A stretch of 64,000 bases of DNA from Escherichia phage vB_EcoM-fFiEco06. The DNA lies in sequence record NC_054914.1; one strand, 5' to 3'. The notes beneath the pieces were generated by a model. The model did not search any database. It saw only the letters and a program-made list of their open reading frames with translations, and had not been told where the DNA came from. Position numbers and translations under genes: made by a program. Below, one piece after another: positions 36,339 to 37,757 of the stretch; the stretch's first letter is position 1, and each line of letters starts with the position of its first letter.

Positions 36339-37213
36339 TCAACACCGATGCGGCGCCACATTTCAACTACTTGAGTTCGGTCATCAATAGCTAATTTCAC
36401 ATCAAAATGCGGTGCGATGTGTTTCCAGAAAATTTCTTCTTTAACTACATCATCTTTACGGGTATCGCCTTGTTCGCGTTGACACTGCATGACTAATGGA
36501 ACACCAGCAATGTCCTCAACCCATTTACGGGTCATACGATAATATTTCGTTGGATCTTCTTCGGTTCCACTTTCACGGCCTGAAACGACTACGATTTGAT
36601 AACCCATAAGAGCATACATCTTGGATAGTTCAACGACCATTGGATTAATAATATCGGTATCGCATTTTTCAAGGTCATAAGGACCACGACCATTCATTTT
36701 TGCTAACGTGCCATCAACATCAAAAATAACTGCTTTTGGTTTACCAGGAGTCCCTTTATATACCGGAAGACCGAGATACTCTCGCATGCTTTTATACATT
36801 GAACGTAAAACATCAATTGGTACTGCTTTAGTTCCGCGTTTTGAGTTGCGTTTAACCAATTCAGTCCAAGGAACATCAAACACTTTATGTTCAATTTGAT
36901 GCCCAAGCTCTTTGGCAAACTCTTCCCAAACCTTACGTCGTTCAGGATTCAGATTAGTATCTGAAACAATTACACCCTTCGTTGCGTCTTGGCAGAGAAT
37001 CATGTTAGCAACATCATGCTGCATGTAAGTTACGATACCTTCTTTATTTTTGGTATACTTGTACTCATCGCGTTCTTCATGACCCATGATGGATTGACGA
37101 TAATCATCACGATTAATATTATAAAACCCTGGATTTTTAGCAATAAATTCGCGAGCCCAAGTACTCTTACCAGAACCAGGACAGCCAATAGTCAAAATAA
37201 TCTTTTTCATCAT
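36308..37213 (-). CDS. pseT: polynucleotide 5'-kinase/3'-phosphatase (301 aa)
   Basis: P-loop GCPGSGKST and HAD phosphatase motif VIFDVDGTL; length matches T4 PNK. Confidence 0.95.
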
Positions 37214-37530
37214 TTAATTCCTAAGAAAACTTCAAGAATACGAATATTGTGCTCACACCGTCCTTTGTACAATTCAGCTGTTGATTGATTCGCTGATTTA
37301 CTCTGAACATTGGATGAAATAAATTTTATCATGTGATTTTTAAGCTGATACATATCAAGCCCACGAGCTTTCGCTTCTTTTCGCAGGGCTTTACCAGCAT
37401 CATCTAAAGCTTTAGCAGGGTCTTCATCATTTAATACTATTCCACGATCCAAATCCATGTATACTGCACCATGACATGCATCAATGTAACGGTCTGAGCA
37501 TTCAATATAACGTTCTAGCAGAGTTTTCAT
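37210..37530 (-). CDS. hypothetical protein, 106 aa
   Basis: ATGA-coupled ORF between pseT and spanin genes. Confidence 0.45.
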
Positions 37531-37757
37531 TTATTTTTCTCAACCAATGATTGAATATAATCATGCAGGTCTTTAGATGCTTTGCCCCACTTATTTTGGT
37601 ATTCATTTTTAAGATTAGCACGTGATTGAGCTAATAAAACATCATTAGTTGGAGGTAAAGATTCTAATCGCTGAATCTGGCGTCCATAAATCATTGCAGC
37701 CATCTCGGATTCATAAATCAATCCTTTGAGATGTTCAAATTGATGCCATGAAATCAT
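37527..37757 (-). CDS. hypothetical protein, 76 aa
   Basis: ATGA-coupled ORF. Confidence 0.45.
   Translation of the reverse strand: MISWHQFEHLKGLIYESEMAAMIYGRQIQRLESLPPTNDVLLAQSRANLKNEYQNKWGKASKDLHDYIQSLVEKNK

Follow-up and report, generated by a model that had tools for sequence, protein, structure and literature searches.

Two small genes upstream of pseT in a T4-like phage genome: a very probable orthologue of T4 pseT.1 and a gene that T4 lacks

Introduction

In the record of bacteriophage T4, the polynucleotide kinase gene pseT, pseT.1 (75 amino acids (aa), NC_000866 134908-135135), pseT.2, pseT.3 and alc stand next to each other in this order. Here we describe the corresponding region in a stretch of 64,000 nucleotides (nt) from Escherichia phage vB_EcoM-fFiEco06 (NC_054914.1), termed the window, in which two minus-strand open reading frames (ORFs) of 106 and 76 aa lie between pseT and the o-spanin gene. 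The longer one, ORF106, resembles the RB69ORF231c / RB32ORF217c family of phages RB69 and T2: it is a full-length member, occupies the same slot upstream of pseT and shares the predicted fold. A preliminary description of this DNA had placed the T4 spanin genes pseT.2 and pseT.3 directly after pseT, which overlooks pseT.1 between them, and had suggested that both ORFs may be lineage-specific additions. In the corrected map T4 does have pseT.1 and, as far as ORF106 is concerned, it is T4 and not its relatives that forms the exception.

T-even phages also encode small accessory or counter-defence proteins, such as Dmd, which are early, dispensable on laboratory hosts, variable between relatives and devoid of enzymatic motifs. 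NrdC.1 is a further protein of this kind according to the HIDEN-SEQ study, in which T4 and phage Bas37 were subjected to saturating transposon mutagenesis (10.1101/2025.11.20.689424).

Judged by its sequence, the window is part of a Tequatrovirus (T4-like) genome. The 801-bp segment around both ORFs is shared with 100% identity by Escherichia phage vB_EcoM-fHoEco02, Yersinia phages PYps14T and PYps15T and others, all of which belong to Tequatrovirus. The two ORFs, their direct neighbours and the junctions between them are, from upstream to downstream:

37754-38053, minus strand: pseT.2, o-spanin, 99 aa (phrog_812 'Rz-like spanin', 3.5e-43)
37754-37757, minus strand: ATGA overlap of the pseT.2 stop with the pseT.1 start
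37527-37757, minus strand: pseT.1 orthologue, 76 aa, predicted two-helix hairpin (phrog_2347, identity to T4, AlphaFold2)
37527-37530, minus strand: ATGA overlap of the pseT.1 stop with the ORF106 start
37210-37530, minus strand: ORF106, member of PHROG 2364 (RB69ORF231c / RB32ORF217c family), predicted soluble four-helix bundle, not in T4 (phrog_2364, tblastn, AlphaFold2)
37210-37213, minus strand: ATGA overlap of the ORF106 stop with the first pseT ATG
36308-37213, minus strand: pseT, polynucleotide 5'-kinase/3'-phosphatase, 301 aa, downstream gene, translationally coupled (Pfam HAD_PNKP 1.5e-59, AAA_33 7.9e-25)

The ORF list, Pfam and PHROG agree with the preliminary description that the two ORFs sit between polynucleotide kinase and the o-spanin gene. 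Its ATGA overlaps are likewise borne out by the ORF list and the sequence, since all three junctions read ATGA on the coding strand ('tcat' on the plus strand).

The pseT.1 orthologue

Over residues 1-74, the 76-aa product does not differ from T4 PseT.1 (100% identity). As in T4, its gene lies in the slot between pseT.2 and the pseT side and is coupled to pseT.2 in the same way, and the position directly downstream of pseT.2 on the pseT side is kept in T4, T2, RB69, e11/2 and Bas37. The two proteins differ in their last residues, EKNK* in the window and EKK* in T4, which is explained by one A more or fewer in the A-run at the junction. The 76-aa ORF is thus very likely the orthologue of T4 pseT.1 and not an addition specific to its lineage, as a gene whose product is identical over residues 1-74 holds the same position in T4. 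The preliminary description had reckoned with the possibility that its gene naming was mistaken and that T4 carries an orthologue with a known function at this place. For the 76-aa ORF this proved right as to the orthologue and the name, but not as to the function, since T4 pseT.1 has no known one.

A full-length PHROG match (phrog_2347, 1.4e-42; protein residues 2-74, profile positions 1-72 of 72), homologues in 816 phage records detected by tblastn, and a dN of ~0 compared to a dS of 0.12-0.27 within Tequatrovirus together indicate that the ORF is a real gene. All rates of nonsynonymous (dN) and synonymous (dS) substitution given here are pairwise Nei-Gojobori estimates. Homologues of T4 PseT.1 (NP_049835, 'conserved hypothetical protein'; PHROG 2347) carry the precomputed Pfam assignment PF26888. 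One homologue, 79% identical, is found on a 353-bp contig filed under Xanthomonas pisi DSM 18956 in NCBI, most likely as phage contamination of the assembly.

ORF106 and its absence from T4

ORF106 matches phrog_2364 from end to end (5e-58; protein residues 1-106, profile positions 1-105 of 105). By tblastn its family is recovered in 707 phage records, including T6, RB5, AR1, RB69 (RB69ORF231c), JS10, JS98, IME08 and Yersinia phage MHG19; the T2 copy is RB32ORF217c. The slot directly upstream of pseT is also its place in Mosigvirus, Dhakavirus and Yersinia T4-like phages. The RB69 locus shows 63% identity across 100% of the query. The gene lies just upstream of pseT in T2, T6, RB5, AR1, e11/2, RB69, Dhakavirus ESCO10 and Yersinia phage MHG19, and a stop/start overlap with pseT is usual at the loci inspected (e11/2, ESCO10, MHG19, Shinka, FriedrichMiescher and Bas37, which is phage KarlGJung). 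In RB69, one extra 63-aa ORF separates the two genes.

T4 has no counterpart of ORF106, and pseT.1 there abuts pseT. The synteny comparison with T4, T2 and T6 that the preliminary description had proposed therefore shows pseT.1 in T4, and the ORF106 family in T2 and T6 but not in T4. Within Tequatrovirus the T4 arrangement is rare. When 400 nt across the T4 junction were used as query and the ranked matches were sampled at even spacing, 44 Tequatrovirus rows had full coverage, and 40 of them (~90%) are split at the junction by an insert of 300-320 bp. The contiguous T4-type junction is found in the other four, namely T4 twice, Pu-Krd-SF6 and fPS-90. Serratia phage CHI14 (Winklervirus) also lacks the ORF106 gene and has pseT.1 abutting pseT, and the 133 records of Klebsiella phages in which pseT.1 has a homologue are absent from the tblastn matches of ORF106.

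The edges of the segment missing from T4 coincide with two copies of a short direct repeat:

37524-37530, minus strand: ATGAAAA direct repeat, upstream copy, which is the ORF106 start and one edge of the missing segment (window/T4/RB69 DNA alignment, e11/2 junction)
37204-37210, minus strand: ATGAAAA direct repeat, downstream copy, which is the T4-equivalent pseT start and the other edge, 320 nt from the first (sequence, DNA alignment, e11/2 junction)

The window/T4/RB69 alignment and the e11/2 junction show that the T4 sequence consists of an e11/2-type pseT.1 end (…GAGAAAAAATAAATGAAAA) fused exactly to …AGATTATTTTGAC of pseT. Being an exact join at the repeats, the T4 junction fits recombination between the two 7-nt copies, and in all likelihood the T4 state is an exact, microhomology-mediated 320-bp deletion between them. 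It is highly probable that ORF106 is ancestral in this slot for Tequatrovirus and that T4 represents a minority state. The proposal of a lineage-specific addition is therefore correct for ORF106 in that T4 has no counterpart, but not in its direction, as ~40 of 44 sampled Tequatrovirus rows carry the gene and T4 appears to have deleted it. The locus would be a clean example of gene loss, in which recombination between 7-nt start-codon repeats removed a whole gene from a translationally coupled operon.

Among 1.84 billion cluster representatives, searched exhaustively with HMMER, only 4 clusters matched ORF106. A profile search returned 64 clusters at 90% identity, all of 60-123 aa, none with a Pfam domain and with 'hypothetical protein' as the sole given name; those on long contigs lie on contigs of ~170 kb. 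Both searches stay inside the T-even family and yield no remote homologues. As far as these matches go, the family is narrow and confined to T-even genera of Escherichia, Shigella and Yersinia. Neither gene is new to public phage records or to PHROGs, where most entries call them hypothetical proteins, and deposited genomes contain an identical region.

Two members of the family are annotated with shorter products. RB69ORF231c is given as 78 aa from an internal Met, while the full-length 99-aa ORF (NC_004928 136316-136615) that starts 63 nt further upstream aligns with the family end to end. RB32ORF217c is listed as 82 aa in the T2 record and may have been shortened in the same way. The pseT.2-to-pseT interval also contains an ORF of ~160 aa in Dhakavirus (ESCO10), Yersinia phage MHG19 and Serratia phage CHI14, which is not found in Tequatrovirus; the interval is a variable slot with multiple occupancy.

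Selection and allelic exchange

For most pairs with unsaturated dS, dN/dS of ORF106 is 0.06-0.35. One pair, e11/2 versus MHG19, reaches 0.50. The value of 0.73 for the window versus FriedrichMiescher is due to an exchanged loop segment and not to a relaxation of selection. The low ratios, the full-length PHROG match and the presence in 707 records indicate that ORF106 is a real gene under purifying selection.

The gene is far more diverged than its surroundings. Between the window and e11/2, the ORF106 products are 63% identical with a dS of 1.33, whereas the flanking proteins PseT.1 and PseT are 99% and 98% identical with a dS of 0.15-0.23. In a DNA alignment of seven alleles, the Bas37 allele is of the window type for the first ~125 nt and of the e11/2 type thereafter, and the T6/FriedrichMiescher allele is of the window type except for a replacement of ~55 nt that encodes the loop between helix 1 and helix 2. 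These intragenic mosaics indicate that recombination between conserved flanks swaps alleles at this locus, either entirely or in part. The window product belongs to a long, 106-aa type, in which this loop is 7 residues longer than in the 99-aa RB69 type, to which it is 63-68% identical. Two segments of the gene stand out:

37420-37479, minus strand: ORF106 codons 18-37, hypervariable, low-confidence helix1-helix2 loop that is replaced or shortened in other alleles (protein alignment, pLDDT, DNA mosaic analysis)
37219-37222, minus strand: AGGA, Shine-Dalgarno-like motif for pseT, inside the last ORF106 codons (L-G-I-K; sequence)

The C-terminal residues L103, G104, I105 and K106 are invariant in the protein alignment. 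This probably reflects a dual-coding constraint, a link that we infer from the AGGA and the ATG that serve pseT.

Predicted folds and annotations

An AlphaFold2 model built on the family alignment predicts that ORF106 forms a four-helix bundle (predicted local distance difference test (pLDDT) 88; helices 2-21, 38-55, 60-76 and 82-102). The hypervariable loop 22-37 is predicted to be disordered, with pLDDT 50-66 over residues 21-40. For PseT.1 the model is a two-helix hairpin (pLDDT 94.5; helices 4-32 and 40-75). Foldseek against BFVD recovers only family members of RB69 and Yersinia phage fHe-Yen9-01 for ORF106 (1e-6 to 5e-6) and, against the PDB, only generic hairpins for PseT.1 (E >= 0.36). 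Structure prediction, which the preliminary description had recommended, thus provides a confident bundle but no informative fold match.

Sequence profiles agree with this. Scans of both products with Pfam, NCBIfam and PADLOC gave nothing significant, PADLOC anti-phage defence profiles contained no family at E <= 1 for either ORF, and profile searches of PDB sequences yielded no match below E = 0.1 for either family. Moreover, a Pfam scan of 25 ORF106 family members returned no consistent family. The statement that the 106-aa protein has no obvious homology is therefore confirmed by Pfam, NCBIfam, PADLOC and the PDB. No literature was found on pseT.1, RB69ORF231c, RB32ORF217c or phrog_2364. 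In the models both products would be small, all-helical proteins, and neither appears to have a catalytic motif.

The Cys/His-containing N-terminal string of 12 letters that had been pointed out in ORF106 is present as residues 10-21 of the product. It is not a conserved motif, however: in many members R or L takes the place of C11, H20 varies as well, and near-invariance is limited to C19. A zinc-finger-like N-terminus can be discarded, as there is no conserved set of three or four ligands and some members have a single Cys in total. Two of the names that the family carries in databases fare no better. DUF6388, the name under which Shinka and Nami carry the gene, has no hit at E <= 10 in any of the 25 members, in a search whose HMMER filters drop most matches above E ~0.1, and the label 'DNA metabolism protein', given to ORF106 or pseT.1 in some records, is unsupported. 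Together with 'putative homing endonuclease', discussed below, these are annotations of the ORF106 family that should be cleaned up.

Another reading is that ORF106 binds nucleic acids, as a small GapR-like or helix-turn-helix-like regulator of DNA or RNA of the phage or the host. The Pfam domain GapR_DNA-bd (PF10073) gives a weak match to residues 39-89 (E = 0.082), but its 13 bits lie below the cut-off of 22.6 bits, only 2 of the 25 family members are matched, and the PDB profile search lists no GapR chain up to E <= 10. A weak profile match to the helix-turn-helix protein Cgl2762 (2jn6, E = 0.3) contrasts with a model that is a closed four-helix bundle with helices of 17-21 residues rather than a compact helix-turn-helix. 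Conservation and a mildly basic character mark helices 2 and 3, and the isoelectric point reaches 9.7 in some alleles, but it ranges from 6.1 to 9.7 and many alleles have a near-neutral net charge. The 'DNA metabolism protein' label on the ORF106 gene or the adjacent pseT.1 is a further point in favour. We consider a nucleic-acid binder quite unlikely.

Dispensability in Bas37

The transposon data bear directly on both genes, as bas37_0055 corresponds to pseT, bas37_0056 to ORF106 and bas37_0057 to pseT.1. The bas37_0056 product is a 103-aa mosaic allele with 63% overall identity to the ORF106 product of the window. Insertions were recovered at 27 of its 30 TA sites, and the gene is classed as 'Non-essential' (10.1101/2025.11.20.689424, Extended Data Tables). 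Its log2 fold changes in six host comparisons are +0.08, -0.02, -0.32, +0.14, -0.63 and +0.15, with an adjusted p of 1 throughout (10.1101/2025.11.20.689424). In pseT.1, 16 of 17 sites accept insertions in Bas37, where none of the comparisons shows a significant change, and 17 of 17 sites do so in T4 (10.1101/2025.11.20.689424). pseT of Bas37, by comparison, is conditionally essential on isolate CFE336 (log2 fold change -7.58, q = 0), and on CFE299 it is depleted too (-1.90, q = 0). On neither of these hosts is the ORF106 orthologue significantly depleted (CFE336 -0.63, p = 0.18; CFE299 -0.02) (10.1101/2025.11.20.689424). Thus, ORF106 and pseT.1 are dispensable in this related phage, also on hosts that require pseT. 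Since insertions in the ORF106 orthologue spare the pseT phenotype, they are not strongly polar on pseT.

These results speak to the idea that ORF106 is a dedicated partner or regulator of PseT that, for example, targets or modulates the tRNA repair countering anticodon nucleases. The arrangement of the two genes would suit such a function: in Tequatrovirus, Dhakavirus and MHG19, ORF106 directly precedes pseT and overlaps it stop to start, even where amino-acid identity falls to 36-38%, and the AGGA in front of the pseT start lies in its last codons. These phages broadly keep their gene order anyway, however, and RB69 has another ORF between the two genes. T4 lacks ORF106 and yet its record describes PseT as a partner of RnlA that repairs tRNA on restrictive prr hosts. 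In the Bas37 data, pseT is needed on CFE336 and CFE299 and the adjacent upstream gene is not, which argues against an obligatory cofactor. A dedicated PseT partner is therefore distinctly improbable, and ORF106 is most probably not an obligatory one.

It is very improbable that both ORFs are mainly translated spacers, which feed ribosomes to pseT by coupling and whose proteins are unimportant. The ATGA overlaps all along the run and the coincidence of the invariant LGIK with the Shine-Dalgarno-like motif and start codon of pseT are what such a function would predict. But purifying selection is seen from end to end, and many of the invariant residues are remote from the junctions. In addition, the fold is predicted with confidence, T4 expresses pseT without ORF106, and the pseT phenotype is not reproduced by insertions in the Bas37 orthologue.

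Finally, the label 'putative homing endonuclease', given to the gene in FriedrichMiescher, KarlGJung (Bas37) and others among the BASEL phages, is almost certainly wrong, also in the sense of a mobile-element remnant: presence or absence with exact boundaries would fit a mobile gene, but 25 members show no HNH, GIY-YIG, LAGLIDADG or PD-(D/E)XK Pfam match at E <= 10, the proteins of ~100 aa are predicted to be all-helical without a strand, and a single syntenic slot across at least four genera fits vertical descent with homologous exchange and not homing to new sites.

A possible accessory role

The explanation that we prefer, and to which we give an even chance, is that ORF106, lost from T4, and pseT.1 are accessory genes for small early helical binding proteins, ORF106 being a conditionally useful factor and no obligatory partner of PseT. 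Both products, ORF106 as a four-helix bundle of ~12 kDa, would be soluble early proteins that bind a macromolecule rather than catalyse a reaction, and the helical hairpin of PseT.1 would probably pair into a bundle. As an accessory factor, ORF106 would be of use under certain conditions, in host takeover or counter-defence, and the evidence is consistent with a partner that varies among hosts. The loss from T4 without obvious harm fits such a conditional role. Its allelic mosaicism, hypervariable loop and repeated loss point to a conditionally useful host-interaction or counter-defence factor, a reading that we hold only tentatively and would sooner doubt than assert. If it is correct, ORF106 adds one more entry to the accessory arsenal of T-even phages.

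As a working analogy, ORF106 and PseT.1 may be likened to Dmd and similar proteins, whose traits listed above they would share. Unlike Dmd and NrdC.1, however, neither ORF has been linked to a defence system or a host target, and neither shows a conditional phenotype in the six Bas37 comparisons.

Several points weigh against an accessory binding function. Allelic mosaicism is common across the accessory regions of T-even phages and does not by itself demonstrate an arms race. In the Bas37 screen, neither K-12 nor any of the six comparisons revealed a phenotype of the ORF106 orthologue (10.1101/2025.11.20.689424), and these data thus provide no positive evidence for a counter-defence role; they come from a preprint, and the Bas37 allele tested is only 63% identical to the window protein.

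A more specific version, which we regard as rather unlikely, sees in ORF106 a modular factor for counter-defence or host range that is shuffled by recombination. It would target an immunity or housekeeping component of E. coli or Yersinia that is absent from or irrelevant in K-12 and the isolates tested, and its specificity would be tuned by the helix1-helix2 loop and an exchangeable C-terminal half. In that case the T4 deletion would be one of the reasons why T4 and phages of the T2/T6 type differ in their sensitivity to hosts or defences.

Transcription and neighbouring genes

In the ORF list for 35500-39500 and in the sequence, alc, pseT.3, pseT.2, pseT.1, ORF106 and pseT form an unbroken run of overlapping minus-strand genes. 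The features upstream of those listed above, and a further one in pseT, are:

38962-40122, minus strand: rnlA-like ORF (ORF list)
38929-38957, minus strand: sigma-70-like promoter candidate, TTTACA-17-TATAGT with extended -10 TG, between rnlA and alc (consensus scan, 10/12 matches)
38394-38900, minus strand: alc, first gene of the overlapping run (Pfam ALC 2.7e-90)
38050-38403, minus strand: pseT.3, i-spanin, 117 aa (phrog_739 'Rz-like spanin', 4.3e-37)
37208-37210, minus strand: second in-frame pseT ATG, matching the T4 PseT start (sequence, T4 comparison)

The candidate at 38929-38957 is, as a consensus match, likely the early promoter of the alc-to-pseT run. No terminator-like site was detected on the minus strand at 35000-41000, and the late-promoter motif TATAAATA does not occur on the minus strand at 32971-49699; in the 64-kb window as a whole it is seen 18 times against 8 expected. 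With a promoter candidate upstream and neither terminator-like site nor late promoter, early or middle co-transcription of alc through pseT fits the pattern, as far as consensus matches can tell. In an Rfam scan of positions 1-64000 no family reaches the gathering threshold.

The PseT proteins of the window and T4 are 93% identical. pseT of the window has two consecutive in-frame ATGs at 37208-37213 on the minus strand (MMKK…), and PseT of T4 and e11/2 begins at the second (MKK…). Initiation at the first ATG results in the ATGA overlap, initiation at the second in a 1-nt TGATG overlap with the upstream stop.

Two other genes of the neighbourhood are of note. A 175-aa ORF at 35051-35578 (minus strand), between cd.2 and cd.3, matches phrog_3710 (1.9e-54, unknown function), and NCBIfam and PADLOC gave no clue to it. 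T4 has no counterpart and only a short promoter-bearing spacer between cd.2 and cd.3, so that the ORF is a second accessory gene missing from T4 in the same operon neighbourhood. The other is the cd.4 orthologue at 35918-36118 (minus strand; phrog_2360), whose Bas37 counterpart is bas37_0053. The latter is strongly conditionally essential in one host comparison (log2 fold change -5.84, adjusted p = 0); on CFE299 its value of -2.26 (p = 0.01) is not significant after adjustment, and a knockout plasmid for it was built by the HIDEN-SEQ authors (10.1101/2025.11.20.689424). cd.4 is a more promising counter-defence candidate than ORF106 or pseT.1.

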